From: Hormiphora californensis
Taxonomy: Eukaryota > Animalia > Ctenophora
Assembly: GCA_020137815.1 (NCBI GenBank)
Contig: CM035361.1
Location: 4,650,001 to 4,714,000, forward strand
Reading direction: 5' to 3'
Length of the DNA: 64,000 bases
Each line of letters begins with the position of its first letter. Positions within the stretch are counted from its first letter, which is position 1. A model generated the notes under the pieces. That model had not been told where the DNA came from and did not search any database. It saw only the letters and a list, made by a program, of their open reading frames with translations. Positions 1 through 60,040 of the stretch are shown one piece after another. The position numbers and the translations under genes are program-made.

Positions 1-1375
1 CTCTCTTTCTAAACCCCATATCGGGTGGGCCACCATTCTACTAGTGACGATTCTACTGCATACCGGTAATTGATCTGCGTCTCTCCCCCTGGACCCCACT
101 CTTCCTTCTCCTACTATATCTCTCTTTCTAAACCCCATACCGGGTGGGCCACCATTCTACTAGTGACGATTCTACTGCATACCGGTAATTGATCTGCCCT
201 CTCTCCCCCTGACCCCACTCTTCCTTCTCCTACTATATCTCTCTTTCTAAACCCCATATCGGGTGGGCCACCATTCTACTAGTGACGATTCTACTGCATA
301 CCGGTAATGATCTGCGTCTCTCCCCCTGACCCCACTCTTCCTTCTCCTACTATATCTCTCTTTCTAAACCCCCATACCGGGTGGGCCACCATTCTACTAG
401 TGACGATTCTACTGCATACGGTAATTGATCTGCGTCTCTCCCCCTTGACCCCACTCTTCCTTCTCCTACTATATCTCTCTTTCTAAACCCCATATCGGGT
501 GGGCCACCATTCTACTAGTGACGATTCTACTGCATACCGGTAATTGATCTGCCTCTCTCCCCCTGACCCCACTCTTCCTTCTCCTACTATATCTCTCTTT
601 CTAAACCCCATATCGGGTGGGCCACCATTCTACTAGTGACGATTCTACTGCATACCGGTAATTGATCTGCCTCTCTCCCCCTCACCCCACTCTTCCTTCT
701 CCTACTATATCTCTCTTTCTAAACCCCATACCGGGTGGGCCACCATTCTACTAGTGACGATTCTACTGCATACCGGTAATTGATCTGCCTCTCTCCCCCT
801 GACCCCACTCTTCCTTCTCCTACTATATCTCTCTTTCTAAACCCCATATCGGGTGGGCCACCATTCTACTAGTGACGATTCTACTGCATACCGGTAATTG
901 ATCTGCCTCTCTCCCCCTGACCCCACTCTTCCTTCTCCTACTATATCTCTCTTTCTAAACCCCATACCGGGTGGGCCACCATTCTACTAGTGACGATTCT
1001 ACTGCATACCGGTAATTGATCTGCCTCTCTCCCTCTGACCCCACTCTTCCTTCTCCTACTATATCTCTCTTTCTAAACCCCATATCGGGTGGGCCACCAT
1101 TCTACTAGTGACGATTCTACTACATACCGGTAATTGATCTGCGTCTCTCCCCCTGACCCCACTCTTCCTTATCCTACTATATCTCTCTTTCTAAACCCCA
1201 TATCGGGTGGGCCACCATTCTACTAGTGACGATTCTACTGCATACCGGTAATTGATCTGCCTCTCTCCCCCTGACCCCACTCTTCCTTCTCCTACTATAT
1301 CTCTCTTTCTAAACCCCATATCGGGTGGGCCACCATTCTACTAGTGACGATTCTACTGCATACCGGTAATTGATC
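1..1375 (+). repeat. ~118-bp tandem array, 12 copies of the BCKDHA phospho-loop exon plus GT donor and pyrimidine-rich spacer
   Basis: Near-identical units GGTGGGCCACCATTCTACTAGTGACGATTCTACTGCATACCG|gtaattgatctgc...ctaaaccccata(t/c)cg. Confidence 0.95.
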
Positions 1376-4300
1376 AATTAATACTATACTGCCTCTCTCC
1401 CCCAATCTGACCGCACTCCCCCACCTTTCTCCCAACTTCTACTTTCTCACTGCTCCCCACTCCCACTTTCCCTCTAAACCCCCTCTCCACCCACTCCCCA
1501 CTCTCACCACCCCTCCCTCTCCACTCTCTCCCTAATACAGAAGTATAGATGAGGTAAACTACTGATCCCACTATCCCCACTCTACCCCACTCCTAACCCT
1601 CCCTCTAAACCCCCACTTTACCCCACTCCCATTCTACCCCACTCTCACCACCCCTCCCTCCCCACCCCCACCCTCGCCACTCTCCCTAATACAGAAGTAT
1701 AGATGAGGTAAACTACTAATCCCACTATCCCCACTCCCACTCTACCCCACTCCTGTCTCCTCCTAACCCTCCCTCTACTCCCACTCTACCCACTCCTCCT
1801 AACCCTCCCTCTAAACCCCCACTTTACCCCACTCCCACTCTACCCCACTCCTCCTAACCCTCCCTCTAAACCCCCACTCCCACTCTACCCCACTGTTCCT
1901 AACCCTCCCTCTAAACCCCCACTCCCACTCTACCCCACTGTTCCTAACCCTCCCTCTAAACCCCTACTCCCTCTCTACCCCACTGTTCCTAACCCTCCCT
2001 CTAAACCCCCACTCCCACTCTACCCCACTCCTCCTAACCCTCCCTCTAAACCCCTACTCCCTCTCTACCCCACTGTTCCTAACCCTCCCTCTAAACCCCC
2101 ACTCTACCCCACTATCCCCACTCTCCACCCTCTCCACTCTCACCACCCTCTCCACTCTCTCCACCCTCTCCACTCTCTATCCCGGCCCAACTCACATTCT
2201 CCCGACTCCCTCTAAACGCTCACTCTCCCTAATACAGAAGTATAGATGAGGTTAACTACTAATCCCACTATCCCCACTCCCACTCTACCTCACTCTCACC
2301 ACCCCTCCCTCTAAACCCCCACTCCCACTCTACCCCACTCTCACCACCCCTCCCTCTACTCCCACTCTACTTACCCAACTCACATTCTCCCGACTCCCTC
2401 TCCACCCCACTCTCCCTAATACAGAAGTATAGATGAGGTTAACTACTAATCCCACTATCCCCACTCCCACTCTACCTCACTCTCACACCCCTCCCTCTAA
2501 CCCCCACTCCCACTCTACCCCACTCTCACCACCCCGCCCTCTACTCCCACTCTACTTACCCCACTCACATTCTCCCGACTCCCTCTCCACCCCACTCTCC
2601 CTAATACAGAAGTATAGATAAGGTAAACTACTAATCCCACTATCCCCACTCCCACTCTACCTCACTCTCACCACCCCTCCCTCTAAACCCCCACTCCCAC
2701 TCTACCCCACTCTCACCACCCCTCCCTCTACTCCCACTCTACTTACCCCACTCACATTCTCCCGACTCCCTCTCCACCCCACTCTCCCTAATACAGAAGT
2801 ATAGATGAGGTTAACTACTAATCCCACTATCCCCACTCCCACTCTACCTCACTCTCACCACCCCTCCCTCTAAACCCCCACTCCCACTCTACCCCACTCT
2901 CACCACCCCTCCCTCTACTCCCACTCTACTTACCCCACTCACATTCTCCCGACTCCCTCTCCACCCCACTCTCCCTAATACAGAAGTATAGATAAGGTAA
3001 ACTACTAATCCCACTATCCCCACTCCCACTCTCTATCCCCACTCCCACTCTCTATACCGGCCCCACTCCCACTCTCTTCTCCCTCTAAACTCTCACTCTC
3101 CCTAATACAGGAGTATAGATGAGGTTAACTACTGGGACCGGGAGGACAGTCCAGTGGGTCGGTTAGCACAACATCTCATTACCAAGGGCCTATGGAGCAC
3201 TGATCTAGAGGAATCATACGCTAAAGAGGTAGTTGGATAGTCTTAGGAACCGACCGAATCAGGAAATACTGGTCCCTGATTGGCTGATAACCAGTCACGT
3301 GACCTAAATAACGAGTTGGGGGGGCCGTCACCTTTTTTTTTGTCTACAGGAACATTGCACCAGATTTTGAAAATGAAAGTGTAGACAAAAGTAGACAAAA
3401 GTAGACAAAACTTTTTTTTTCAAGTTAATAATAATAATAATACAGTCAGACCCCGATTTAGGGGCCCCCGATTTAGTGGCACCCCGATTTAGGGACAGGA
3501 TTTTTTTCCCCCGATATAGGAAATTAACCTTATTTGACCCCGATTTAGTGGACACCCCGATTTAGTGGACAAGAGCCTTTCCCCCGAGGGTGTCCCTAAA
3601 TCGGGGTCCGACTGTAACTATGTTTATATTCCGCCCATATCCGACAGGGACAGAGCAGTGAAACTGCTGCTGTCACTGAAGGATAATCTGAACGGTTAAT
3701 ATACTAGTAAGACCTTGACAACTTATCCCTAATAGAACAAAAATTAATAAAGAAAAAACACCGGCTCACATTACTATCGGCTCACATAACTATCGGTGAC
3801 TGATTACATAACAGACTGAGTTAGAGTCCTGGAACTCTAAAAAGATTGATATAAAAGTCCGTAGATTGGAAACACAGAAAAACACTCGTGCTATGAAAAA
3901 ACCCAACTTATGCTTCACACTTCTGCTCGCCACGAGTTAAGAATTTTTTTTAAATTTTCTGCACTTGTTAAGTATTCTCATACACATTATCTACGTTTCT
4001 ATTAGTAATTTCGATTTTAATTGCCCCCTCTTTACCCCCAACCACAAAAGTAGACAAAAGTAGACAAAAATTTTTCAAGTTTAGAAAACAATTCCCAAAC
4101 AATTTCTATCCTTGATATTTATTTCCATGTTCTCTATTTGGACTATATTTATGTGTGTACGGGTGTTTGTGACTTCAATTGCTCCCTCTTTACCCCCAAA
4201 CACTCTTAGAACACTTTAGGAACACCTGTAGACAAAAGTAGACAAAAAATTTCAAGTTTAGAAAACGATTTTTATCCTCGATATGTATTTCCATGTCCTC

Positions 4301-6139
4301 TATTTATGTGTGTATGGGTGTTTGTGACTTCAATTGCCCCCTCTTTACCCCAAACACTCTTAGAACACTTTAGGAACACCTGTAGACAAAAGTAGACAAA
4401 AGTAGACAAAAAAATTTCAAGTTTAGAAAACAATTCCCAAACAATAATTTCTATCATTGATATGTATTTCTATGTTCTCTATTGGAACTATATTTATGTG
4501 TATACGGGTGTTTGTGACTTCAATTGCTCCCTCTTTACCCCCAAACACTCTTAGAACACTTTAGGAACACCTGTAGACAAAAGTAGACAAAAGTAGACAA
4601 TAAAATGTCAAGTTTTAGAAAACGATTTCTATCCTTGATATGTGTTTCCATGTTCTCTATTTATATGTGTATGGGTGTTTGTGACTTCAATTGTCCCCTC
4701 TTTACCCCCAAACAATCTTAGAACACTTTAGGAACACCTGTAGACAAAAGTAGACAAAAAGTTTTCGAGTTTAGAAAACAATTCCCAAACAATTTCTATC
4801 CTTGATATGTATTTCCATGTTCTCTATTGGGACTATATTTATGTGTGTACGGGTGTTTGTGACTTCAATTGCTCCCTCTTTACCCCCAAACACTCTTAGA
4901 ACACTTTAGGAACACCTTTAGACAAAAGTAGACAAAAAGTTTTCAAGTTTAGAAAACGATTTCTATCCTTGATATGTATTTCCATGTTCTCTATTTATGT
5001 GTGTATGGGTGTTTGTGACTTCAATTGCCCCCTCTTTAGCCCCAAACACTCTTAGAACACTTTAGGAACACCTGTAGACAAAAGTAGACAAAAAGTTTTC
5101 AAGTTTAGAAAACAATTCCCAAACAATTTCTATCCTTGATATGTATTTCCATGTTCTCTATTGGGACTATATTTATGTGTGTACGGGTGTTTGTGACTTC
5201 AATTGCTCCCTCTTTACCCCCAAACACTCTTAGAACACTTTAGGAATACCTGTAGACAAAAGTAGACAAAAGTAGACAAAAAATTTCTAGTTTAGAAAAC
5301 GATTTAGAAAATTATTTTTTAAATTTTCTGCACTTGTTAAGTATTCTCATATAATACTTTATCTACGTTTTTATTAGTAGTTTCGTTTTCAATTGCCCCC
5401 TATTTACCCCCAAACACTCTTGTCTATAACACTCGACTACAGTAATTGTTCTTAAAGTTTTCTAATTTAGGAATAAAGAAGGGGCCATTGGAATATGAAT
5501 AATTAATAAAAAACATATCCAAAGTATAATATGAAAATACTTAACAATTAAAGAAAATGCAGAAATTGTTTTCTGTACTTGAAAATTTTTTGTCTACTTT
5601 TGTCTACTTTTGTCTACTTTTGTCTACTTTGCACTGAAATTTTCAAAGTGCTGTAGACAAAAGTAGACAAAAAAAAGGTGACGGCCCCCCCAACGAGTTC
5701 TGATTGGTTGTTTACTTGTTTCGGTCGGTTCCTGGATATTCTTATCTCTTCTGATAGTACACATTTATCTAATAATTCACAACGATATATTTATTACAAT
5801 CAATCAAGCATTGACCTGAGTCCTCACTCCTCAGTCCTGTTCCTTTTCTCATTTCTTTCAAAGCACACGAGAATTACAGTGGTCATCGAGGGTTGGCCTG
5901 ACAGGGTTAAACTCTTCCTCAAAATGCAGCTAACCCCTTCATTATTCTAGTGCCGGAAAGAAATAATGACGTCATTTGCTCGGGCGGAATCTGAACGAAG
6001 CCCCAATCCTCTATGGGTCTTTGACGATGTATACGACTCTCTCTCGGATCATCTGGTCGAACAGAGACGAGAGATGAGGGAGCATCTAGAGAAATACGGA
6101 GAGAACTATTCTCTTGATAAATACATGCCTGTGGAGTAA
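24..6139 (+). CDS. BCKDHA: Branched-chain alpha-keto acid dehydrogenase E1 alpha, 3' part (5' exons lie outside the window)
   Basis: A 42-nt exon-like unit (first copy 24-65) reads (R)VGHHSTSDDSTAYR. Exon 3111-3228 reads SIDEVNYWDREDSPVGRLAQHLITKGLWSTDLEESYAKE. Last exon 5951-6139 reads CRKEIMTSFARAESERSPNPLWVFDDVYDSLSDHLVEQRREMREHLEKYGENYSLDKYMPVE*. Phases are consistent and the peptide matches the known BCKDHA C-terminus. Which 42-nt copy is spliced is unknown. Confidence 0.93.
1380..3110 (+). repeat. C-rich intronic repeats (~187-bp period in 2220-3000) carrying copies of the next acceptor and exon start
   Basis: ctccctaatacag|aagtatagat(g/a)aggt(t/a)aactact with AG ending near 1540, 1694, 2237, 2424, 2609, 2796, 2983; the productive acceptor ends at 3110. 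Confidence 0.9.
3427..3936 (-). mobile_element. 3'-UTR fragment of a LINE with (TTA)n tail
   Basis: 3617-3936 is nearly identical to 25608-25933, which lies downstream of a LINE ORF2 C-terminus; (AAT)n at 3427-3442. Confidence 0.85.
3443..3614. mobile_element. Tc1/mariner-type MITE (family B)
   Basis: CAGTC(A/G)GACCCCGATTTA TIRs, TA TSD, inserted in the LINE tail. Confidence 0.88.
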
Positions 6140-8473: not shown

Positions 8474-8835
8474 TACTGATTTTCACTAATACTGAATCAG
8501 TATCACTGATCTGATACTGATCTGTATTTAGCATTTGTCTGGAATCGGGTTGAAATTCTGCCGAGTCATAGATCACTGATCAGAGGCTTGTGTAAAGAAA
8601 GATGTCTTCAAATCTCAGTGGGATGTGATTATCGTATCAAGGAGATTTCCGCTTGTAAGATTTTCCCTTTCTATAAAATGTCCTCCTCGATACACTTGTT
8701 AAGGGTACTATACACCAAGTCAGACATCTCTGCAGCTCTGCCCTGACATCACAGTTAGCTCACGCACACTTTGTTCATTTTTCAACTGTTCATGATTTCA
8801 GTGGCGCAACAAAAATATAAAGTGTCTGTTTTCAA

Positions 8836-8944
8836 CAGGAACCGACCGAATCAGGAAATACTGTTCCCTGATTGGCTGATAACCAGTCACGTGACCTAAA
8901 TAACGAGTTCTGATTGGTTGTTTACTTAATCCGGTCGGTTCCTG
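8836..8944. mobile_element. MITE family A
   Basis: CAGGAACCGACCG TIR; exact 8-bp TSD GTTTTCAA. Confidence 0.92.
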
Positions 8945-9246
8945 GTTTTCAAGCACTGAAAATGTTCGGGTCGGATTCAAAAGTTCCTGTACTTTCGTCG
9001 AATAATTTGTCTCTCTCCCCTGTCAGCTCACATGACAAAATGAAATTGCATTTTCTTCTTAAGTTGTTACTCAGCCTCAGCCTGTGTCTTATCTGCCTGA
9101 AACACAAGCAGCTAGTCACGAGCTAGTGGCATACAGCTTATCTAACACTGCTCAGCAAAATGTGCAGTAAAATATAGGAAACAAGCAATCGGCGGATTTG
9201 AAAATTTCCAATTTCTCAATCTCACCTGCTTTATCTGTGAAATCCG

Positions 9247-28100: not shown

Positions 28101-31100
28101 TTGAACTTCAAGTGGTCCCAACGACACAGCGGGCCCCACCCTACATCAGTTGGAATTGTACAGTCCTTGATGGATTGTAGTAGTAGCGTTGGAAATCTAG
28201 AGCCGTCTTACCTTGTCGCCAAAATCCTGTAAGAATGAAATACTTTCAATTCCGTATTGGTGGTGTCCGATTTGTACCTCACATTATCCCCAATTTGTGC
28301 ACACTAAAGGTTGTCAAACTTTGCAGTTTATTGCTGTTTACCATAAATTTGAGCTGGGGGGTTCGTAGCCTATAATGGGGGTTCCTAGTTGGTTACGAAG
28401 TCACCCTTGTTATTATTATTGCATATTGGGGTTACAGTGGCCAGTGGGGCCCCATGGCCCCACTGGCTCTCTCTCATTCATACGTTGCTGCTGCTGTACT
28501 GCTACTGGTACATTCTACTTCCTAGCTACCGTGTGTGTGCACCCTTTACCTGCATCGTGAATCAAACATCTGAATAGCTTGAGAGAGAGAGAGAATTTGA
28601 TTGTTAACAAAACTTGATTTGTCAATCTGTGAATATGACAAAGACACGCTCTGCTTCTAAATCTGACTCTGTATCCAGCCCGATTCTTGAAATCTTTAAT
28701 GATCCAGAAAGTGTCAACATCAGCTCGATAGAGGATTTGAAGAAACACTTTAACAGCCCTGCTAGTGTTGAGGATGTCCTCCTTGCTCTGTTTTGTATGA
28801 GTCGTCAGCAGCGGCAATTTCTGATTTGCCGCATACGGCGTCTAGACGGCGTCGCAACGCCGTCTAGACGGCGTCTAGACGGTATACCGTCTGGACGGGT
28901 TTCGGTGAAATCAGCTAAAAACGGTACCGAAATTGCTTGAGACGGGTTATAGACGGTATCAGACGGTCTCTAGACGGGTTATAGACGGTATCAGACGGTG
29001 TTGCGACGGTATCAGACGGTCTCTAGACGGTGTCTAGACGGTACCGTCCCGGCGTCTGGACGGCGTCTGGACGGTGTCTAGACGGTATCCGTCCGAAGTT
29101 GAGACGGCACGTCTGAAAATTGTACCAGACGTTGAGACGGACTTTTAGAACTCCGTCTGTATTTCAGACGGAGTTTTAAAAGTACGTCTCAACGCAGTCT
29201 AAAGGAAAATCGATGAAAGTACCGTCTAGACAACGTCTCAACTGAAACCGGTCAACATACCGTCTAAACAACGTCTAGACAACGTCTAAACAGAATCTCG
29301 CGATTCAGTTTCAAATACCGTCTAGACAACTTCTCCAGCAATTTCGATAAGAATACCGTCTAAACAACGTCTAGACAACGTTTCAAATAATGATGTCTAG
29401 ACTCGACCGTTTTCGAAGACCATTCTGGATTACCCATGCCAGTTGGAATTAGTGGTAGATGTGTGCCTATTGAATGAAAATTACACATGTGTTTAACCAG
29501 CACAGTCGTACCGCGATGCTCGGGGACGGGAAAGGGGTTATCCTCCCGGTAATTTTCGTACCCAACTTCTTACATTCAACCAAACTGTTTTGGTATCTCC
29601 ACATTCACTCTTACATCCAGCTATCGCGTTGTAATACAACTGTGAGATACTGTCTATGGCTGATACTATCAGTGATAGATAGTGTCGGTTATGAGACGTT
29701 GTTTAGACGGTATCTGTATCGGATTCGCTTAAGACGTTGTTTAGACGGTATTCGTATCGAAATTGCTGGAGAAGTTGTCTAGACGGTATTTGAAACTGAA
29801 TCGCGAGATTCTGTTTAGACGTTGTCTAGACGTTGTTTAGACGGTATGTTGACCGGTTTCAGTTGAGACGTTGTCTAGACGGTACTTTCATCGATTTTCC
29901 TTTAGACTGCGTTGAGACGTACTTTTAAAACTCCGTCTGAAATACAGACGGAGTTCTAAAAGTCCGTCTCAACGTCTGGTACAATTTTCAGACGTGCCGT
30001 CTCAACTTCGGACGGATACCGTCTAGAAACCGTCCAGACGCCGTCCAGACGCCGGGACGGTACCGTCTAGACACCGTCTAGAGACCGTCTGATACCGTCG
30101 CAACACCGTCTGATACCGTCTATAACCCGTCTAGAGACCGTCTGATACCGTCTATAAACCGTCTCAAGCAATTTCGGTACCGTTTTTAGCTGATTTCACC
30201 GAAACCCGTCCAGACGGTATACCGTCTAGACGCCGTCTAGACGGCGTTGCGACGCCGTCTAGACGCCGTATGCGGCAAATCAGAAATTGCCGTCAGCAGC
30301 GTGAGAATGAGATCCATCTTGAGAAGAAAGTAGTCAGTCTTACCACTGAAGTTGAGCGCCTTACTACTGATCTCGAGAAAGTGGAAGACAGGTTGCTTCG
30401 GTCCGAGGCGTATCAGGGAAGGAACACTGTCTTACTAGCTGGTGTACCCGACTCCACCAACGAGACCCAGAAACAGCTGGAGAACAAGGTTGTCACCGCC
30501 CTCAAGCTCGCTGACCCCACTATCAGACCAGAACACCTTGGTATCGTACATCGGAACAAGGCAAGGCCTGCTGGTCGGACGGTTACAGTCGTCTTCAACC
30601 GTGCCCGACAGAAAGACACCGTGATGAGGAAACAGGGTAGAAACAAGATGAAGAGGATTAACTGTTCGGAGACCTGCCCACCTACTTGTACTGACCACCG
30701 GGGAGTTGCAGCAATGCACAGACTATCACCAGCCCTGGCTGATCGCAAGAAGGAAATTGAGAATTTACCGAGTGTTGAATGGGTGTGCTTTTCAGGCCAC
30801 CGTCTTTTTACAGTGTGCTATGACAAAGACAAAATTAAACACAACGTAATCCGAGCAAGTGATCTTGAAATGGATTAGTTGGCAGTGAATTTCTGTGTGT
30901 TAAGGAATGTGTTTTATTGGAATGTGCGTGAGAATAATTCTCTACCTCCTGCACACATTTTTTCTTAAACTTGCTGTTAACTTCCCTATTTTACCTCCTT
31001 TACCTGTTTTTTAATACCCCTGTTTTTACCCTCTAGTTACCTACTCTTCCTTTTTGACCCATTTATCCATTTTTAATCCCACTAACAATCATTCTCTCTC

Positions 31101-34100
31101 TCTCCATTACTGCATGTCTGTTATGTTTTCATCGTGTGCTGACGTGGAGGTCTGGGCTGTGGCGGTGCTCCTGTGGCGATCTACTATCTCGAGGCTGGTG
31201 TGTGTGTCTGTCTCTTACTATGTATCAGGTATTTCAATTACCCTACTAGTTGTCTCTAACCCCTCTATTGTAAATCCTGGTCCTAGAAAACTCAAAGTTA
31301 TCTTTGCCAATGTTCAGGGTTTGGTTAGTCCTGGTCATGTTGGATCAGCTGACCCTCCCCTGAATATGGCCAAGGTATATGAAATTCAGGACTATGTTTA
31401 CAGAAATGATATTGATATAGTTATTTTTAATGAGACGTGGCTAAAATCTAAAATTGATTCTTCCCTAGTTTTCCCCCGTAACTATAAAGTTTTCCGTCAA
31501 GATAGAACTGGGTACACACACCCCCGTGACCCCAATAACCCTCTTAAGTTTAGGGAAAATGGGGGTGGTGTACTTATAGCCCATCGTGAGAATATTGATG
31601 TTACCAGTGTTCGTTTCTCGGGTGTTAGAGCTAGAGCCGAGTTATTAACTATCTCCCTTTCTTTCTCTTCTGGGAAGAAACTATGTGTTTCGACTTTCTA
31701 CAGAGTCGGAAATTTGAGTGAGGATAATTTTCTTCAGTTTAAAGAACATTTTAATGCTATTTTCTCTCGTCGTAATGTTTGCAAGCATGTACTTGTTGGA
31801 GATCTAAACTTTCCCGGTGTAGATTGGCCTCTGTCCTATCCCCGCACCGGGATCGAAGACAGTTTTCTGCGGTACCTGCTAGATGACTTGGGGCATAGTC
31901 AAATGATTAATACCCCCACACATATTGGTGGACGTATTTTAGATCTCTGCTTTACAAATGATCCTGAGTGTGTAAATAATTTTGATATTCTTGATTCTGA
32001 TGTGCTATGCTCGAGTGACCACTTTCCTTTTACTTTCAATATTAACATGGACGTGAAAAATGTGAAAGAGGACCGACGTAAAGTGTTACTATTTGATAAG
32101 GGTGATTTTGAGAGTATATGTGCTGACTTGAGTGCCATTAACTGGACTAATGTTTTTACTGGTGACATGGAGTATAATGTTTCTGCTTTTAATTCCATCA
32201 TCACTTCACTCATTGAGAAGTATATCCCCACTAAACTTGTTAAAAATATTGTCCTTCCCATTTGGTGGAGTAGCGAGTGTGAGAATGCCAGAACTAGAAA
32301 AGAGAATCTGCGTAAGCGTTATAAGAGTTCGGGTCTGAAATCTGATTATGACAATTTTAGTGCTGCTCGTTCTTATTTTAAAAATGTTTGTGATTCTAGA
32401 AGTAGAAATTGTCTTGATATTGATGATACTGATAACATTAGTAAGAAGTTTTGGAGACAGGTGAAGGTAAACTCCAAATCTACTCGGATACCCAACATTG
32501 TTAATGATGGTGTGGTGTTCAAGTCAGATTCGGAGGGACAATCTAACTTGTTCAACCAGCACTTTGTTTCTAATTTCTCTAGTCCTAGTAACTACAATAT
32601 TGAGGAGACTGTTGAAAACATTTTTGATGCTGGGGATTTAGCCTCTTATGAATTCAGTGGAAGTGAGATACACTCCGTTCTATCTGCCCTGAATGCTCGT
32701 AAGGGGCCTGGCCCTGATGGTATCCATAGCATTGTCTTTAAAAAGTGTGCTGGTGTACTTGCATATCCCCTATCCCTGCTCTATAACCAGGCCTACTTCA
32801 CTAGTGACCTCCCGTCCATCTGGAGATCCGCTAATGTAGTACCAGTCCACAAGTCAGGCGATAAAAGAGATGTTAGAAACTACAGACCTATTTCTCTTAC
32901 TTGTATAGCTATGAAAGTTTTTGAGAGAATGATGAGTAACCGACTTCTTGACCTCTGTTTTGACAAGATTGATCGACGACAGCACGGTTTTCTCCCTGGG
33001 AGATCTTGTCTAAGTCAAATGATTTCTTTCACGGACACCCTCTTCCAGACTGATAACAACCGACTGACAACTGACATTATATATACCGATTACAAGAAAG
33101 CTTTTGATAGTGTCAGTCATGATATCATCTTGGAGAAGCTTACATCCAAATTTGGTATCACGGGTAAATTATTGGGTCTTATTCGTGTTTATCTTATGGG
33201 CCGTACCCAAAGAGTTGCTGTTGGAGGTAGTCTCTCATCCCCCCTGGCTGTTGCTAGTGGGGTACCACAGGGGAGTATTATCGGTCCCCTCTTGTTTGTT
33301 CTGTTTATGAATGACGTGTATGACTGTCTCGAAGGTGATTGCGAGTGTCTTGTTTATGCTGATGATGTCAAGCTCTTTAATAAAATCACTAGTTTTAGAG
33401 ATCACTTAGACCTACAACTCAGTATTGATAACTTGTATCGATGGTCAGTTGATAATAAGATGACTCTACACCCCCTTAAATGTAAAGTAGTTTCTATTTG
33501 TTCTTCTCGTTGTGTGCAAACCTGGGGTCAACTTCCTTTCTTTTATATGAACTATACATTGAATGGAGTTGATCTTATCGGTGTTGACTCTCAGAGAGAT
33601 TTGGGTGTTTTTGTGTCACAAGATTTGTCATGGAAATATCATATAGACTTTATACTTCAGCAGTTCACTGACCGTTTCAACATGCTTCGTAGAACTGTTC
33701 ACTTCATTAAGAACATTCACCAGAGACGTATACTGTACCTCTCTCTTGTTAGGTCCCTTCTTGAGCACTGTCCCCAGGTTTGGGCCCCCACTCAGGTGGG
33801 TCTCCGTGTAAAGCTTGAGGCAGCTCAGAAGAGGGCCATCAAGTGGGTGTATTGCGTCAATCCCATTGTGAGTTGGAGTGAGGAAATATATTATCTTAAC
33901 TTATCCAACATTAGTATTCTCCCTATTCACCTTCACTTTCTCTTTAATGATCTCAAGCTGTTCTACAAAGTTATTTCGGGTATTATAAATCTTGATCTTC
34001 CCCCTTATCTCTTTCTTAAGAGCCCTACTGACATCTCTTACCGAACCCGGGCTAACCGTGACATAATTGACCTTGTCGATTTCACCACGGTTGGCTGTAC

Positions 34101-37100
34101 TGTTCAACCTCTGAGCGCAGCCTTTAGAAACAGCTTTTTTGTCAGAACTTACCCTAAATGGAATGAACTCCCAGTCGAAATCAGACAATCATCTTCCCTT
34201 GATATTTTCTCGATTGGACTGAAGACCCGCCTATTTAAATCTATTACACCCCCTGCTCCCCCTTAACTTTCCCAGCTACTACAGACACACCACTCCAGCT
34301 CTCCTGCCTCGGACGCCGCCATTAGACCACCTCCCTCCTCTTCAGCGCACCGTTATCTTCTTCTACCAGCATGCAGTGAAGGGTTGAGAGTTGAGAACTG
34401 TTTTTATAGGTTTAATTAAGAACAATTTTTAATAGATATTTTTACTCTGGGTGCCACCTGTTATAGTGGACTGACTCCATGTTGGTGGAGCCCGGGACGT
34501 GCGGCTTTATTTATTGACATTTATTTATTGTATATAACGTTCTAATTTTTCCATGATAAAAAAAATGGGGGTTCCTACTATTATAATGGGGGGTCACCAT
34601 GACGTAGCATATATTACAACAAAAATGCAACCTCCCCAGGTTCAATGTCACTCGCTTCTCGGATGCAAAGAAGATTCTGGAGACTCTACCCACTAAAACA
34701 AGTGCCACGCTGGAATTACTGGCTAGTTGTTGGGTGGCGCTCGGTGATCAGATATCTGCCCTTAGTGTGTTCGAGGAGGCGAGGTGAGCCAAGAATTTAG
34801 AAGTTGTATGGAATTATAAATCTAGAATGTTAACAACTCCCAGCTTGGTATAATGGCCTAACATCTTACGGTGAGAGATTGCCCAGCAATCGAAAAAGAA
34901 TTTCCCTCGGTGTACCCTTGTAAATTAGACGAGAAGGATCTTTGTTTTTCCACTTTTCACACTTCTATGTTTGATCAAGCTTTGTTTCCGAATTTCACAC
35001 TTGCACCAGTGCTACTAAGTAAGATATCTTTAAGGAGAAGTTCAACTTCCGAGACTAATGATTGATCCAAACAATTGGTGTTTTGTTTCTCATTTCGATT
35101 AGTTCAAGCTCCAGGTAACACTTTCTCGAGTACTTTCACTAGCATCTCTTCACAGAGCAAGAGACTAATGATTGAAAAGATTTACTAGCGCGAGTATAAC
35201 AATACAGCCGGATTAGCTAGATGAATAGGTTGATTAAGAAACCACGTGTTGTTAGTTTTACACCTTACTCGACACCTGCCAACAAGAGCCTAGTATATTA
35301 ACCCCCCCCCCTCACTACTCACTACCACTACCGACCACTACCGACTACCGACCACTGGAAAAGAAGAAGAAGATGAAGTTCCTGATTGTTCTACTGATCG
35401 CCCTGGCCCACGCTAAGGACGATGGACTGAAGACCATCCTTCAAAGTCCCACCAAGACCCTGGAGCTCTACAAAAAGTTCAAGGGAGAGCAGCACCTCCA
35501 GTTTAGCTCTGCCGAGGAAGGGATGAGGTTCAGGCTGTTCAAATTGAGTGCCCATTTTGTTGCCAGCGAGAATGATGTTGAGGGAGAGACCGCCCACTTC
35601 GCACTCAACATGTTCTCCACGATGGCGGAGGCTGAGAAGCAGTCCTACCTGGGGCTCAATGTTACCGGACATGAAAATGATAACGATGATGTTGCAGATG
35701 ATCTCCTAGCTGAGGGAGTTTCCGCTCCCAGTGAGAAACTCTGGACGAACGAGGGAAAGGTGACACCGGTGAAAAACCAAGGTTCCTGTGGATCTTGCTG
35801 GACTTATGGAGCTGTCGGAGGTCTGGAGACGAGGTACGCTACCAAAACCGGTGTACTGAGAAACTTCGCCGAGCAGGAGTACCTTGACTGTGTCTACAGC
35901 ACCCGAAACGGATGTAATGGAGGATGGCCCGATGATTGTTACACATACTCTGCTAGATACGGACGACTGGCACCTTCCTCTTCTTACTCCTACCGTGGAT
36001 ATGATAGTACCTGTAAAAGGAACTTCCATAATGACGGTCTTGTAGCCGCAACGATTAACGGTAAGATATCCGTAGGAGTATCTGAGTCCCAGAACATTGC
36101 TGCACTGGCTCATGGTTCCCTTTCTATGGCTTTCCAGGCGACAACCCGGTTCTTGAGTTATTCTGGAGGAATCCTGTCAGACAACACATGCACGGGGCGA
36201 GCTAATCATGCTGTTACTGGAGTGGGTTACACCTCTGAATATATCCTGGTTAAAAACTCCTGGGGAAGCAGTTGGGGTGATCGCGGTTTCGTCAAATTCG
36301 CCCGGGGATACCCTAGTGACTGCAAGCTGTTCGCCCACTCTAGCTACCCTGCCCTCAGTTCCACTGGATACCCAGATTCTGGGTCCGATGCCGCTACCAC
36401 CTACAACCCCAAGCCGTGTGAGAATACCGTCAGTGGGGAGTTGTGCAGGCAGTATGATGACGCGTACAATTACTGCAAGTACGATTGGTTTAAGGAGGAC
36501 TACTGCAGGAAGTATTGTACTAAGTGCAGTGACTAGTGGTACGCCATACTTTGTGACGACATGGAGTCTGGAGACATGAGCACATATGTGCTAGACAAGA
36601 CTACTGCAGCTGCACTGCAGCTCCCCCTAAAGACTAGAGGAGAATATGTAGATTGTAGTTCTAATTCAAATTTATTGATTTAATAAATTATTATGCATTG
36701 AAAACTACGGGTGTTTCATGAGCCATGGTTCACTAATTTCGCTATTGGTTACTTTCAAATCATGCACTCATATGTGATGTCTCACACCCGTCGACGGAAA
36801 TATGAGTATTTGAGTATTTCATACTGACTAGGGAACCCATCAAGTTGAAGCCCCGTCGACTACGAAAATCGTGCTAAAAGGAGTTTGGGTTAATCAATCA
36901 GTGGTTTCCTGTACTGCTGCAGTATACACGCCATTTATTTATTTTAACATTTGAAGTCAGTTAGTGATTTCCTCATTCTTCTTTTTGGCAGCTGATAACA
37001 GTTTATTTGATGTAGGTTACCCAGCTGCCCTACGATGCATGATTCCTATAACAACTATAATGGCTAGGAAAAAATCAATGGGGTGTTACACTGTTACACA

Positions 37101-40100
37101 ATCAATTTGTTGAAGCTATATATTATATTTTCTACTAGCTGGAGTATATAAGCTACGTAATGTTTCTAAACCAATATATCAAAAGTCTTATAAGTACATA
37201 GTGCTAAATAGGACAGTACTATAATAGGTACTTAGGGAACCCCTCTCTCTCTCTCTCCCCCTCTCTCTCTGACTAATCAGATACAGCTGCCTCACCTTGG
37301 ATCATTGCTAGGTGGTGGACAAGTAACTCGATGCCACAACCTGTCAACTCAATTATTGAAGCATTTAGCAAAGTTTTTCTTTTTCCCCCGTCAATATTTA
37401 ACACCAATCAACGCGAACGGTGTTAGTACAATTCATTCAACTAGCACAGTTATTTATTTATTCCTTCAATGTCTCGTGGTCTAACAGATGTGTGTTCCTT
37501 TGTTTTTAACCCCTCCCCTCTCGTCACATGACCAGCCTTCCTTTGTTTTATATTTTCTAACCCACCCTGTCATATGACCACAGAAGCTTCTTATAAAAGC
37601 AACGGTGTGATGTTCGTTAACTATTACTACGTTATACTACCACTTAAAGAGGCCCTCTACTACTACAATCACCATGAGGATATTCCTGTTGATCGTTTTG
37701 GTTATTGGGGTTACACTGGCGACTAATGATGCGATCAAATGGATCTACTTGGAGAACAAGTCCGGGACTTCTGGCTCTGGAAACTATGTTGGAGTTCCTC
37801 GGATTATGAATTATGCCGACTGGAAGGGAACTGTGTGCAAGAAGGGGTTTGGACAGAATGAGGCTGACTTCCTGTGCCGCAAGATTGGCTTCCCTGGTGG
37901 GGGAACGTTCACAACCTACGGAGATCTTGAGGGAAAGTACCAGACTTCTACACATTTATGGCAAAACTACCCAGGAAAAATTACAATTACCAACTGTAAG
38001 GCAAACGCAGTGAGACTAAGTGATTGCAACTACCAATATGGCGGGTACTGTACAATAGACGACACTGTGGCCCTGAAGTGTAATCCCACGTGGGAGCTGG
38101 AGAAAGTGGAGTTAAAGAGGAACGTCAGCAGCACGGTTGTAAGTGGCAGCTACGGGACAGTGATCACCGCGATGAGAAATACTGCTGATGGATCCTTAAA
38201 AAGTGGCATGTATTACCGTGGTTATGACTACTCTCCATCCACTAGGGATTTCTTCTGCAGAAAGGCAGGCTATCCTCTTGGGGCCGAGGATCATGGAACA
38301 AACGAAAACAAACGGAATGAAAGCCTAGCGGAAGCATTCATTGGACGCCAATTTGCGTTCCCACGTGGTTGTAACTGCCCGGCAGGTACAAAGGATCTAT
38401 CAGAGTGCGGCAGGTCTTATAGACCTTTTACCTATAATACACGTACATGGGAGGAAGGGGAAGTTTTATTTTGTAGGACACCAGCGCCCACACCAGCACC
38501 CACACCAGCACCCACACCAGCACCCACACCAGCACCCACACCAGCACCCACACCAGCACCCACACCAGCACCCACACCAGCTCCCACACCAGCACCCACA
38601 CCAGCACCCACACCAGCTCCCACACCAGCACCCACACCAGCACCCACACCAGCACCCACACCAGCACCCACACCAGCACCCACACCAGCACCCACACCAG
38701 CTCCCACACCAGCACCCACACCAGCACCCACACCAGCACCCACACCAGCGCCCACACCAGCACCCACACCAGCACCCACACCAGCACCAGGGCCTTGGAA
38801 CTCGACGATAACCATAGAAACGGGACACGGGTTAAAATCAGCCAAGGGCACTGTCGTCCTTAAAAACCAGTACACCCTGAAGAAAAGCCTGATCTGTGGT
38901 AAAGACTTGGACCGACATACCGCTGATTTAATTTGTAGGGCAGCGGGACTCCGGTTTGCAGAAGCGATTGCGATCAACTACGAGATTTCTCACGACGACC
39001 GATTGGATTGCTCTTACGTCAGGGAGAATGGCATCCAGCCGATACTGACAAATGTAAGCTGCCCCCGTAACGCTTCCTCCCTTGACTCCTGTTCTACAAG
39101 CCCAGTTGATGGTGGAGTGTGTGATGCAGACAGTGGACTACACTTGACCTGCACAGACGACATCCCTCCTTCCTCCGTGTGGGATCTAGTTGATATAACA
39201 CTGGCCAGGAACCCAGGAGGAGGCCACATGCCGGAGAATGTTGTTTGGAATGGAAACTTTGGGACAGCCATCGCAACCTTGCACAGCCGTGAGAATGGAA
39301 CCTTCCTGACAGGTCTGGTACCTGTCAGTGCCATGATACAAGGGAGCCCCTACTGCAACACCCAAGCCATGTGCCAGTCCATCTTGGATGCCTCGACCAG
39401 CTTCGCTGACTACAGGAGCACAGGAGAACTTGAGGAAAGTCACGGGAAAGGTCTCTCCTGTGGGTACATCATCAGTAATGATGTCAACTTCCTGCCTGTA
39501 ACCAGTATAGATTGTGGTTGTGGAGCCGATGTCAGTATTGAGGACTGCAGGGATATCGTCGTTTCACCAGAAACCCTACTTAGTGATCCTAAGGAGGCAC
39601 TCTGGGTTAACTGCTACTAGAGGAGATCAAGCAAACATTTTAAATTTCCAAAACCATTTTGAAATAATTTGATCAAAAGTCTAGTTTATCTTATTTTTCC
39701 GAAACACAGTTACAACCGGTTTGGTATTGAAAGCTATCTTGACTGATCCTGCATGTAATACAAGTGTAGACTGTATGTGTATGTGCGTGTACAACTTGTA
39801 CGAATTGTGTTCCTGCAGAAACCCTTGGTCATCTTCAGCTTCCCTTTTCCCTCATCAGAATGTCGCTCGGCAATTTCCGCATTCGCTCGGGAGACGGCTC
39901 GGGAACAACAGGTGGTTTGCCGAGCCATGCGGCCTTGTGCGGTAAGTTTTCGGCGACCTCCTTGACTCTCCGAACCACTGGTTCGGCAAACCACCTGTTG
40001 TTACCGAACCAATCACCGAGCCAATGCAGAAATTGCCGAGCGACATTCTGATGGGGGTTCCTGTACTCATTTCTCTTTTCCCTTGGTCAACTCCCTTTTC

Positions 40101-43564: not shown

Positions 43565-44786
43565 TCAAGATACCACCACCACGGGTATATCGACACAAAC
43601 GAGCATGGAGCCAGTTGTAGAGTCCTTGAGCTTCCATCTGGACACCAGTTTAATTGCTGGGTAGGAAGGCTGAACGTTGAGAGACTGAAAAACGGTTGTA
43701 GGTTAATCGGGTAAAAATTTGTTTTATCCTCCCGAATAGATCTAGGTTATATGGAGTATACGGACTTGAAATTATATTTTTTTCTCTACTTTTACTAGAG
43801 TCTCTGCTGTGAGGCCAATGCTCTGACAAAGTCTCTGAGTAAAAATAAATATTTCAATTTTCAATCAAACCTCTGTGAACGTGGCAGTTGTCCCCGAGGC
43901 AACTGGACATACGTTCCCACAGGCGACACAACCATCACTGAAATTGTGGGGTATTCGTGTCATGATTGGGAAGATTCTTGTTCTTATGACCCTCCTTTAC
44001 TGCAAATGTAAAGAGGGTCGGGCAAGGCAAAAAGATTCATTACATCATCAATGTTCCCAAAAACTCAGTTTTTGACTAACGGTTGGGGTAAAGGGAAGAC
44101 ATAACACGACACATAATGCCCTAATATGGACATAACGTGACACATAATGCCCTAATATGGACACGATACTAACGGTTGGGGTAAAGGGAAGGGGACGGGT
44201 ATTCCAGCAATAACTCCAGCAAGACTGGCCTTCATTGACGTGACAGCCACCTTAGATTTAAAGGTTACATTGATATCGTAACTGTGTCCTAGGAAAGTTA
44301 TAAGTTTTAGACTGATATCAATTAGCAAACTCTTAGATGACATCTCTTATCAGAACTTTATTTCATTTTGGATTTCACTTCATGAAAAACATCCTGAAAG
44401 CTGAGTTTCAATTCCTACATCTCTGTCTCTGCTCTCTATAATTGTAGCATACGGTGTGTATGTAACTATAACCTATCATACCTTCATGGCAGGAACCGAC
44501 CGAAACAAGTAAACAACCAATCAGAACTCGTTATTTAGGTCACGTGACTGGTTATCAGCCAATTGCAGGGACCAGTATTTCCTGATTCGGTCGGTTCCTG
44601 CTTCATGGTAGAGTGAGTAACTTTACCTTTTCGAGCTTTGCAAACAGGATCAGTGCAAGCTTTACTGAAAACTTTGATTATCTCTCCAGAGCTGCTGCCA
44701 CAGTCCTTGAAAGTTAGGTCAACTGCAGAAACAACTGCAGCCAAGGCGAGAAGGAGAAGAATTGAGCGCTGTAGAATAATCATCAT
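43565..44786 (-). CDS. NPC2: NPC2-like sterol-binding ML-domain protein
   Basis: Exons 44786-44627, 44288-44174, 43937-43871, 43684-43565: signal peptide, FKDCGS, GIPVPFPLPQPDGC, YPAIKLVSRWKL, CVDIPV. Confidence 0.92.
44490..44600. mobile_element. MITE family A
   Basis: Exact TSD CTTCATGG. Confidence 0.92.
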
Positions 44787-45098: not shown

Positions 45099-45206
45099 CA
45101 GGAACCGACCGAAACAAGTAACAACCAATCAGAACTCGTTATTTAGCTCACGTGACTAGTTATCAGCCAATCAGGGACCAGTATTTCCTGATTCGGTCTG
45201 TTCCTA
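45099..45206. mobile_element. MITE family A
   Basis: Exact TSD GTGATATG. Confidence 0.9.
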
Positions 45207-45697: not shown

Positions 45698-48303
45698 CTA
45701 TCTGAATCCATCTAACACCGCAAAAGGGTCGTCCATAAGGGATAGGTCGTCCTCCATACAACTGCATTCAGTGACAACCATGATTGCTCGGTAGCTGTTG
45801 GGAGAAAGTAATTGATTAGTAATTAACTTGTTGGGAGGAAGTAGTTAACCTGTAATTAACTTGTTGGGAAAAAGTAATTTTTTATCAATCAATTAATCAT
45901 TTATAGCATATATTTGAAGTATGACAAACTTGAACCAATGAACCACTGATAAGTTTATTAAACTTTTTGACTAGCCTTGGCAAGCTCTAGGTTACTCTGT
46001 CGAGCACTTTCGCTGCAGCATAGCATCTCTTTACAGATCAAGAAAAGAAGTTTACACACTCACTGTAGTTTGGTGGACCCTAATATGGGCATATAAACTC
46101 ACTGTAGTTTGGTGGATCTCCTAATATGGACATATAAACTCACTGTAATTTGGTGGATCTCCTAATATGGGCATATAAACTCACTGTAGTTTAGTGGATC
46201 CTGGACAGATGAATCTCTCCGTGGAGACATGCCAGGAAGTTGGTTTGTTTGCAGAGCCAACATCACACAACTCCGTGCAGCGGGTGTGGGGGATAGTGGT
46301 TACTGACTTGCACTCATCTACTATCAGGTAGGTGTTCACCTGGAGAGGGGGTCAAGGTTAGTCCAATTGTTGAGTAACCAGTGGTTACCAGTGGTTACTA
46401 GTGGACTAAGTTAGTCCATGATACCCCTTACTTAGTCCTTAAGATACAGATGTGATATTATTTTCAATTTTAGCACTGGCACGATTTCAAATCGTATATA
46501 AATTTAGAAAACTATAAAAAACATAGACATAAATATTGGCAGTAAAACTACTATTGTAGGAAAAGAATTTTGTAGTCTTTTTGGCGCTCGAATTAAAGGT
46601 ATCTTAAAATTGCAGCTGTATTAAGTACTGCCAATATAAAAGTATTTAATAGGCAGCAAGTTATCGTGTAAGTGCATGTGTGTGTTTTGCACCTCCCATG
46701 GATAAAAGTATAAAATATTATTGGCAGAAGGCAGTGCGAAGCTTATACAAGAGGCTATGTACATAATCATGACTTACTTGAGCGTTTCTATTTGTAAGTG
46801 GATCAAAGACTACGTCACAATCTCGAACGTTACAGTAGGCAGATTCAGCAATTTCCTCCCCGCATTTCCTTCTCTCTCGGTAGGGTAGTGAGAACTCTAA
46901 ATACCTGTAAAATATAAATGAAGTCTTTCACCTGGGTCTGTAAAAAGTTCACCCCTTACTCAACAAGTAAGAATTGGTGATCATAAACAATTGTTACCCA
47001 ACAATTTCAAGAAGGTTCATTTTTGAGTCAAAAGGTTCCATTTCTATTGATTAAACATAAGAACACTCTTGTTTTCTACCTATTCATGGTCCCAGGGCCG
47101 CATTCAGAGGAGCATTCCGTCCAATCGCTCCACGTTGCTGACGAGTGGCAATCTAAGATAGGATTAGGTTTTAGAGAACAAGTATCATGCTGCCAGAGCA
47201 ACCCCAATGAACCGCACCAACCCCTTGGTGACATAGACACCTGTTTAGCATTGTTCTAACCCTCCCTTTACATACACAAAGTATAGCTACTGCTAGGCAA
47301 TTACCTGTTGGGCATTGTTCCCCAGATGGCAGGACCCCATTGTTGTAGGAAACTCGGAGAAGAGTGGCAGTTTCAAGCTGGGAAATGGGAGCAAACCCAT
47401 CAAATCCGGATCCCGCGTGAACACTGAAAGATGGATTCTGTTTACTCCAAACAGAACAAATACATTAATTGTTAATTACAGATTAAATATAATCGGATAT
47501 TTGATATTATGTGTAGTCGCATGACAGACAGCGATTAGTTTCCGCCGAAAAGAGTTTAATCTTATCTCTGTCTCAGTAACAAAAGAGTTGGCATATTTAC
47601 CCGAAGGATCCATCCTCATATCGTGTGAGAAAGAACGCTAACTTTGCTCCCTTTTCTAAGTTCCTATAGCAGTTGCCTCCTGAACAAATGCTAAATGTCA
47701 AAGGTGGCCAGTAATTGTTTTCTTCAAAAGAATCATAAAAAATTATATTTTATTAATTTTAAATTAACTTACGTCCGCTGAAGTAGGCCGTTTCCACGCT
47801 AATTATCTCCGATGTGACTGGTCCTTTGAATCGACACAGCACTGACACCGTCAAAACTAATTTATATGAACTCTCCCTGCAAAGTATCCAGTCAAAAAGG
47901 GATACAAATTTTTTTTCTTTTCTTGTTTAGCCTTATTTATCTATTTTAGCTATTTCTGTAAAGCTTATGGTATTCACCAAATAGCAAGAACGCGAACGAT
48001 TGAGTAACGTAAATGATACCTTCCATCGAAGTGTGAGAGAGGGACAGATCAGGGTCGGGCAAGGCAAACGCTTACTCTCGTTAAAAAGTTTCTTACTAAA
48101 GCGTTTCTTAAAAAACGAGAGTAAGGTATATCATTTATTTCTCACCTATGAGTAGCAATGATTTCCCCATACACAACAGAGTCAAGGTAAGAGTTACTGT
48201 TAGTTAGTTGCTGAAGGGTCGGAACGGTGCAGGATTTAGCCGCAGAGAGGGAGGGGAGGACAAGGAAGAGAGTTATGAGGTATGATCCTAGGTTTATCAT
48301 CAT
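45698..48303 (-). CDS. Secreted 303-aa protein: NtA/NTR-like + TSP1 + CT cystine-knot-like domains
   Basis: Exons 48303-48146, 47876-47773, 47679-47601, 47423-47305, 47152-47080, 46904-46778, 46339-46185, 45794-45698 are all in phase. Motifs: DSVVYGEI...VSVLCRFKG; WSDWTECSSECGPG...CNVRDC; ECKS...FICPG...MVVTECSC. Confidence 0.85.
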
Positions 48304-57509: not shown

Positions 57510-60040
57510 ATGGCCCACCTGGGGATTGATTTCGGGACCACTTCAGTGAAGGTTTGCCTGAAATTAGCTGATGGAACCACTCGAGAGGCCAAGGTAAAGA
57601 GTTTAGTAAATTAGAATTTGAAAATGTTGTAACTTAAAACCAGATTATATGATCTGCAATTGTAAATTGTTCTGTCACAGGAGCATTGGCCTGAAACTTT
57701 CAGGACAATGCTCCCGTTCAGAGTCTGGCCACGGTTTTCGCCTGCAATATGGCCAAAGCTCTGTCAGCCCATGGATATGACATGTACCCTTAATCATGTT
57801 CCAGGTGATTACAAAGCTCACAAACCAGCTGATACCATTAATTGTTCCAGGTGGTCCACAACAGCGACTCAAGCCCCGGGGAGCAAGACGCCATGGAAAC
57901 TTTTTTAGCCGTCACAAGCGCTATTGAGGAGCTTTCTGCCTGCTTTTTTGGTGGATTGGTAGTGGATACCTTATCAACCTGTTGTCAAATGCATGGTAAG
58001 AACCTGATATAACACCATATATGGGCATCACGTGATAATAACTCTCCATACATGGCCATCACTTGATAATAACCAGGAACCGACCGAATCAGGAAATACT
58101 GGTCCCTGATTGGCTGATAACCAGTCACGTGACCTAAATAACGAGTTCTGATTGGTTGTTTACTTGTTTCGGTCGGTTCCTGATAGTAACGCTCCATATA
58201 TTTAGAAACATATGAAACCCGATAGCTGATTTATCAGTCGTTTGAACATTTTGCGCGCACATGATATCTGCTAGCTGGGGGATTTAACACCCTGCTCGCG
58301 TTTTAACAGTCCAGTTCCCTTTTTCTCGCGTTTCTCTTGATTTGAATAACAGGCGTGTAAAATTCCAAGTAATAAAAATGTGTGTAAACACACAGTTCCG
58401 TCAACAAGAGAGAGAGGAAACATGTCTGCAACACTTTTCAATGTTATCTCTCTCATAAAAAAGCAAAAGAATCGCATTCCTATCTTTCTCTCTCTCTCAT
58501 TCCCTCTTTTACTGTTCAATATCTCTCACTGTGTGTATTGGCCCCAATCTTGCTCTCTCTTACTCAAATATGTTAGGAACAGTTGCAACTAGGTGCCAGT
58601 TAGTCTACACACAGTTTGGGGACGTCTGTTGACTATTTTCCAGTACTCCTTGTGTGTTTTACCTTGTGTTGTGTCTCTTATTTATGTGTAATTACTATCG
58701 GGTTTCATAAACTATGAACGTTTGTTAGCCTATCGCGTTATAGGTTTAAATCACCTCCCCCTCACCCTCGGCTGGCGCCTCGGGATCGGCGTCGGGATTT
58801 AAACCAGTTTAATCGCCCTGCTGGGCGATTAAACTCCAGTTGGCTGTCCCCAGCTCGCGCTGGCAACAGCCAACTTCATAACGCGCCAGTCTACAAACGT
58901 TCATAGTTCATATATCACGTGACCACAGTTCCAACTCCAGGTTTAATTCTGTGGAACACCGATGGAACATGTTCACGTCTCATAACCTGGGAGGATGGAA
59001 GGTGCACCCCGGAATTTCTTTCTCAGCTCAAAAAGAAATCCAACCGGCCCCACGTAGATTTACACACGGGATACGGTTGTGCTAGTTTAGCTTGGATGAG
59101 AGAACATGATATGCGCCAGCTCCAGAAATGGCAGTTTTCCGGGACAATCGGCGATTACTTTCTCTGGAGACTGTGCAGTGGCATGAAAGGATCCTTTATC
59201 AGCGACCAAAATGCCGAAAGTTGGGGGTTTTTTGATGCGACCACTGGTGATTGGGATTGGGAGGCAGTGAGGGCACTGGGAATTGATAAATGGCTTCCCA
59301 AAGCTGTAGTCCCAGGAGGAACTGTCGTAACTGACAACCACCAGTGTTTGAACCCGGGACTGCGCGTGGGAAAAGTGTTTGTGCCACTGGGAGATCTCCA
59401 GGCTTCGGTTTACTCGGTCATTGGCGGGAACTCCGGTCGAGTTTTCAATTATGGCACTGCGTGTCAGCTTATAAAAACTGTACCCCCACAAGTTACCCAG
59501 CCACCGATTCTAAACCCATCCTTCCGAGTTTGTCGCTATACTCGGTCCCTTCACCTTCTCACAGCTGCTTCACTAAACGGTGGGAACGCCTTGAAACCCC
59601 TTCAAAACCAGACTGGAGTTCCATTTTCGGAGATTTTAGAGCTTGCTTGGCTGCGTCGGGATACCCCACTGAGATGCAAACCGACCTTTTTGGGCGAGAG
59701 ACATGATGTGAGTGGAAAGGGTCGGTTCTGGAATGTTGGGCTTGATAACTTTACCACCGGTGATATTGCGGCTGCTATATGCCGGGGTGTAGTGGAAAAT
59801 GTAATTGAAATGATGGGCGACCAATCAGAGAGATCAGATCAACAAATGAACCAATCAGAGAGATCATACAATCAAGAGGGCCAATCAGATTTGAGCAATA
59901 ATGTGGATATGTATGCTGTCGGTATTGCCAGTCGGCCGATTATGGAGTACTATGTGAGGAAACTACTGGGTAATTTCAAGTCGGGTGAAGCATCCGCTGC
60001 ACTGGGGGCTATACAGTTTAACCTTGGCGAGTCAGTTTAG
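57510..60040 (+). CDS. SHPK: FGGY-family sugar kinase, sedoheptulokinase-like
   Basis: Exons 57510-57593 (LGIDFGTTSVK), 57851-57995 (EQD...CQMHG), 58941-60040 (LITWEDGRC, GYGCASL, QNAESWGFF, LGDLQAS, AASLNGGN, PTFLGERH). Confidence 0.9.
58074..58182. mobile_element. MITE family A
   Basis: TSD ATAATAAC/ATAGTAAC. Confidence 0.9.
58211..58907. mobile_element. Two adjacent MITE-like elements in SHPK intron 2
   Basis: TATGAAACCCGATAG...CTATCGGGTTTCATA (~58211-58708) and ACTATGAACGTTTGT...ACAAACGTTCATAGT (~58711-58907). Confidence 0.6.

Follow-up and report, generated by a model that had tools for sequence, protein, structure and literature searches.

At the start of a 64,000-nucleotide stretch of Hormiphora californensis DNA (the window; CM035361.1, positions 4,650,001 to 4,714,000) coding sequence for the phosphorylation loop of a metabolic enzyme is repeated in tandem, which raises the question of whether an exon, and with it the loop, is multiplied in the protein, or whether the copies are stepped over by splicing. 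The array is a forward-strand minisatellite of at least 12 units at positions 1–1375 (TRF: period 118, 11.6 copies, 97% matches), delimited by TRF, translation and, for its upstream join, DNA contigs. One unit consists of the final 47 nt of a BCKDHA exon and the donor GT with 71 nt of intron, the GT being counted in the 71. The last exon-end copy (1319–1365, forward strand) runs from Tyr-Arg to Ala-Tyr-Arg with a phase-2 end, the remaining copies on the same strand begin at 19, 138, 257, 375, 493, 611, 729, 847, 965, 1083, and 1201, and the 71-nt spacer of one unit, donor GT first, occupies 1248–1318 (forward strand; alignment and shuffles). All 12 units open with Tyr-Arg, continue into the VGHHSTSDD motif and end at a phase-2 GT donor; their translation is YRVGHHSTSDDS(T)xY, after which the GT stands in the reading frame of the exon. 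Similarity between units is about 97%, with a single substitution other than in the Tyr codon across the 12 exon parts; the unit at 1083 carries Ala>Thr. Every donor copy is identical to the true donor. The array runs off the 5' edge of the window, which makes 12 units a minimum for this assembly and puts the authentic exon, with its first donor, 5' of the window. The initial annotation had described 12 tandem copies of about 118 bp, each an in-frame block followed by GT; the array is real, its period is that found by TRF and the block with GT recurs in 12 of 12 units, but the count stands only as a lower bound, and what had been called a 42-nt exon corresponds to the 3'-terminal 47 nt of a longer one, with no acceptor at that position.

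The unit peptide aligns to human BCKDHA 285–300 (E 6e-4). Downstream on the same strand lie the true next exon at 3111–3228 (human 302–339, E 5e-8), which RNA shows spliced to the loop exon, and the last coding exon at 5951–6139 (human 342–398, E 1e-8), whose junction to 3228 is predicted from frame and numbering. As the three pieces match successive parts of the human protein they are consecutive parts of one gene, BCKDHA (2-oxoisovalerate dehydrogenase E1 alpha), and the gene assignment made at the outset is borne out by this colinearity, as is the reading of HHSTSDD as the loop with the site-1 serine. The donor named at the outset is genuine too, its position being confirmed by RNA. The loop motif was found in 12 of the 124 relatives compared, most of which are too short to reach it. 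A representative search returned mostly fragments, the sole named cluster member being a carp protein; word-index protein searches with single exons gave no scored match among 8 and 25 candidates, and metagenome contigs scanned for the exact pattern yielded 0 matches. We take Ser292, which follows His291 in the numbering of PDB 1dtw, to be site 1, that is, Ser293 in the other numbering. The unit covers chain residues 286–301 of the E1-alpha loop (PDB 1dtw and related structures), among them His291 and Ser292. The second-site serine (302) sits in the next exon, however, and the array copies are intronic and not predicted to be translated, while kinase action in this animal is putative. Phosphorylation of E1-alpha is described at Ser293 and Ser303 (PMC8329528).

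The nature of the unit's 5' boundary is decided by DNA contigs that reach upstream of the window. A contig of DNA run X6 (record 9; 156 nt, depth 1023) ends in 30 bases that match from the TAC codon at 965 onward and has 126 nt before that codon; the 30 letters shown are coding and end in Ile-Glu-Leu-Met-Thr, and 27 of them are shared with, and identical to, the RNA contig described below. The exon thus reaches at least 30 nt further 5' than the exon part of the unit. In a relative (run X12, record 2), with an exon about 90% alike, coding likewise runs straight into Tyr-Arg and the donor after Ala-Tyr-Arg is kept. The depth of the X12 contig is 20.6 before the exon end and 9.9+21.0 after it, and this relative seems to be without a large array. 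In every unit TA(T/C)CG precedes the Val codon (8 TAT, 4 TAC), which confirms the observation of cata(t/c)CG where an acceptor had been expected. Since coding is contiguous with Tyr-Arg in the DNA contigs, the 'CG' belongs to the Arg codon and there is no intron before Val-Gly-His-His: TA(T/C)CG is a Tyr codon, variable (T/C) at its third position, plus two bases of Arg. The evidence for this join comes from sample S2 and from the relative X12, not from sample S1, and X6 and X12 were assigned as DNA by an index guess that is supported by intron-bearing contigs and by the absence of a spliced loose end. That X6 might be RNA, as its share of 0.82 would fit a holder of exon plus UTR, was considered and rejected, since this run has deep spacer contigs and shows no spliced loose end at the donor.

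On the RNA side, run X8 yielded one contig (321 nt, depth 13.8) that matches 1322–1366, has 102 coding letters before this and uses the true acceptor at 3111. It contains one exon copy spliced to the exon at 3111, with no spacer cover and no additional joint. This contig, from a metatranscriptome, is the whole RNA record from two RNA runs (X9 gave 0), contigs of this kind drop rare isoforms, and in the X8 animal the array may be shorter or missing.

The intronic part of the unit is composite. The first 40 nt of the spacer correspond in alignment to the intron sequence after the last unit, shortened by a 14-nt and a 4-nt piece. The score of the spacer against the downstream intron was reached by 1 of 1000 shuffles for the whole spacer, by 0 of 1000 for positions 11–40 and by 370 of 1000 for positions 41–71. 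On sequence comparison, therefore, the 5' part is derived from the downstream intron, while the match of the 3' part (41–71) to that intron is no better than composition would give and is not distinguishable from it. Against the intron minisatellite, the score of the 3' part was reached by 25 of 1000 shuffles. A derivation of the 3' part from an upstream polypyrimidine tract is ruled out by the coding-to-unit join in the DNA contigs.

Junction copies are present at the opposite end of this intron too; they had been missed before. The rest of the intron (1366–3110, forward strand) is C/T-rich with short repeats, and 28 of its 29 AG dinucleotides lie within decoys, the 29th being the true acceptor. 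Seven decoy acceptors with intact AG are spread over 1534–3006 (forward strand), each of which leads into some 23 nt of next-exon sequence and an in-frame stop. The exon-like pieces begin on that strand at 1541, 1695, 2238, 2425, 2610, 2797, and 2984, are identical to the true exon at 20–22 of 23 positions and reach the stop after Tyr; four and a half of the decoys lie within a 187-bp tandem array. The +1 base is A in 7/7 decoys and G in the true exon. Both ends of one intron therefore carry junction copies, at least 12 surplus donors and seven surplus acceptors, and a stop follows each of them: TAA directly past the Arg codon after every donor copy, and a stop within 8 codons of every decoy acceptor. 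As a separate observation, the decoys at 1541, 1695, 2610, and 2984 (4/7) have a donor-like GTAAAC 13 nt past the acceptor where the true exon has GTTAAC, and these may form a 13-nt frameshifting pseudo-exon.

An array at a contig edge could be an assembly artefact, and short-read contigs argue that this one is not. In run X1 a single 148-nt contig spans the entire 92-nt test stretch; as 148 nt is one 118-bp cycle plus a 30-nt overlap, the unit is arranged head to tail outside the assembly too. Deep contigs across the spacer-to-exon junction were present in X4, X5, and X6. The runs are possible sources of the window or come from the same sample, so they check the assembly and are not all independent animals; the last exon region is present whole or partly in 13 of the 15 listed runs, and the contig comparison covered eight of the 15 (X1, X4 to X9, and X12), of which RNA run X9 and DNA run X7 gave no contig, an outcome that carries no weight. 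The one-nucleotide deletion reported near 420 is in the window, at 418/419, but as a real variant it did not hold up so well. Of the 11 full units, units 1–4 contain all six one-base indels (P ~0.002 under an even spread), and none of the six appears in the indel tables of X4/X5 and X1/X6, where absence of a row is no proof of identity, the X1 contig hides variants and the X1/X6 stretch covers 3 of the 6 indel sites. The deletion is probably an assembly or consensus error near the contig edge. Among the records listed, depth gives about 9 spacer-exon junctions per single-copy flank in X4 ((1398+688)/~230) and about 3 in X6 ((2244+1082)/1023), compared with 12 in the window; depth is no copy number, and these ratios are a hint that array length differs between the two samples. 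X5 had no cover past 1376, for which a different allele or a filter is possible, and short loose ends at 966 and 982 (X6) and at 1297, 1301, and 1360 (X5) look like chimeric or adapter pieces.

Copied splice junctions are found elsewhere in the window. In a gene on the minus strand (46340–45720) both borders of one intron are copied: an exon end with a GTGAGT donor occurs four times with a 41-bp period (near 46188, 46147, 46106, and 46067), and an acceptor-like word three times with a 33-bp period (near 45868, 45835, and 45802). The two exons of this gene join in frame and are cysteine-rich and cystine-knot-like by eye, with no Pfam match. A second minus-strand gene (44800–43880), with an ML domain (NPC2-like) by a weak Pfam match below the cut-off (E 0.007), carries two copies of one exon end with its donor, at 44179 and 44086, which are spaced by 93 bp with a 31-bp repeat in the interval. 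The last BCKDHA intron holds a 2.4-kb element (3318–5691), which we take to be hAT-like from its terminal inverted repeats and 8-bp target duplication; it contains 167/334-bp internal repeats and splits a short element of about 115 bp with inverted repeats, whole copies of which lie at about 8820–8945, 44490–44600, and 45100–45200. The window further contains two 11-bp repeat arrays in opposite orientation (28830–29108 and 29996–30274, in the region 28800–30900), an L1-ORF1-like frame (30135–30878, by eye) just before a LINE-like reverse transcriptase frame (31015–34266, by eye), a papain-family protease open frame (35373–36536; Pfam C1, E 2e-50), a frame with about 26 copies of a 12-bp Pro-Ala-Pro-Thr repeat (37611–39620) and an FGGY kinase open frame (58907–60040, E 2e-9). 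For a cathepsin encoded in the window, the only named animals among the 120 matches listed were Bolinopsis microptera and Mnemiopsis leidyi (45–58% identity), which by itself makes the source a likely ctenophore other than these two.

The array at the 5' end is a splice-junction minisatellite, of the type called 'mirage' or of the F7 IVS7 type. It is very probably a neutral by-product of local duplication, mirrored by the seven acceptor copies and stepped over by splicing. A duplication across the exon/intron border, one at each border, would have been multiplied by slippage or unequal crossing-over. In human F7 the most 5' donor is chosen among identical sites, as shown experimentally (PMC1557585), and by analogy the spliceosome would here take the most 5' donor, while the acceptor nearest the next donor would be chosen through exon definition. 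The authentic junction is held by the outermost unit on either side: coding joins a unit in X6, the first unit being outside the window, and on the acceptor side it is the last copy, at 3111, that is joined in RNA. The splice signals themselves are intact, with GT in 12/12 units and AG in 7/7 decoy acceptors. Use of any other donor or acceptor would lead to a stop within 1–8 codons and probably to nonsense-mediated decay. Recent expansion would explain both the near-identity of the units and the A shared by the decoys at +1, selection being a possible alternative. That two further genes of the window have copied splice junctions points to a genome-wide habit rather than to a function specific to the loop.

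An unlikely alternative to this neutral origin is that the decoys tune BCKDHA output, more units giving more stop-containing, degraded mRNA so that array length would act as an expression dial. The identity of all donor copies to the true one and the AG kept in all seven decoys would fit such a role, as would the depth ratios of about 9 and 3 if they reflect length differences, and in human 6-16 and CBS splicing does take the nearest pseudo-donors (PMC1557585). F7, lamin B2, and PDGF, on the other hand, use the first site only (PMC1557585), amphioxus mirages leave splicing undisturbed (PMC3087553), no RNA contig with spacer was found in X8 and the relative X12 seems to do without an array. Still less probable is splicing of the unit as a 97-nt intron and a 21-nt in-frame micro-exon, which would insert acidic pieces of 7 residues, in variable number in animals with long arrays, between the two kinase sites. 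Each unit does have a single AG, in frame, 97 nt past the prior donor and 21 nt before its own, which leaves a latent segment in every unit (1345–1365 on the forward strand in the last one), and mirage units have been proposed as recruitable exons (PMC3087553). The segment was not seen spliced, however: neither the insert nor its joint occurs in the X8 RNA contig. The bases before the AG are purine-mixed exon sequence with the pyrimidine tract some 25 nt away, and a longer active-site loop would likely harm the enzyme. If true, a length-polymorphic repeat would provide tunable control of branched-chain amino-acid breakdown and an intron gain would have been caught in the act.

The explanation favored initially, that an entire 42-nt exon had been multiplied with its acceptor AG turned into a dead CG and that an AG-bearing functional copy lies upstream, is refuted by the DNA contigs. 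The T/C variation does fall at −3 of the supposed acceptor, and the open reading frames of some fragmentary relatives (P0040, P0052) turn unrelated just before Arg-Ile-Gly-His-His, where human BCKDHA presumably has an intron. Against this, coding is contiguous with Tyr-Arg in two DNA runs, T/C is explained as the Tyr third base, and no AG-ended intron before a unit was found among the five loose-end rows of the X-run DNA contigs; a second, intron-less gene copy could have given the X6 and X12 contigs, but these runs show no spliced loose end at the donor, which argues against it. The contigs instead agree with the other option offered by the initial annotation, namely that Tyr-Arg is exon-derived and that just the exon end and donor were copied. 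The expectation that any included copy would multiply the loop in frame fails for two reasons. Read-through of a donor meets TAA at once, and the only AG of the unit lies inside the exon part and could release a piece of at most 21 nt without His-His-Ser. No complete exon bounded by acceptor and donor, as in tandem whole-exon duplication, was found in the unit.

As a splice-junction minisatellite the array belongs to a known class. The 37-bp VNTR in human F7 intron 7 and the similar repeats of 6-16, CBS, lamin B2, and PDGF likewise have a tandem unit spanning the border with the donor unchanged (Borensztajn et al. 2006, PMC1557585); F7 splicing goes to the most 5' donor (PMC1557585), and the one RNA contig fits such a choice here. 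Compared with the F7 type (PMC1557585) the unit is longer (118 bp) and takes in 47 exon bases where F7 has 4; a second, acceptor-side array lies in this intron, and the host is a ctenophore and not a mammal. The mirage minisatellites of amphioxus Adh3 and of the globins BflGb6 and BflGb9 have units of 150–160 bp that span 5' or 3' borders with AG/GT kept (PMC3087553). Their number differs between haplotypes, they are homogenized except for the boundary unit and splicing is normal, but in the examples described the donor-side and acceptor-side cases are found in different genes (PMC3087553), whereas here they share one intron. Splice-junction repeats are unmentioned in the available parts of PMC8527503 and of bioRxiv 2020.01.20.912931, and a limited search of the open-access literature returned no ctenophore splice-site minisatellite, which does not prove absence. 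The two-sided arrangement and the phylum are thus mildly new within a class of feature already known.

The phospho-loop content of the array looks incidental, and the array does not demonstrate exon multiplication of the loop. Its significance is modest: it extends splice-junction minisatellites to a ctenophore and is a warning for annotation, as such junction copies can create false exons. It also provides a natural test of splice-site choice, in which at least 12 identical donors face eight near-identical acceptors across one intron of a metabolic gene.
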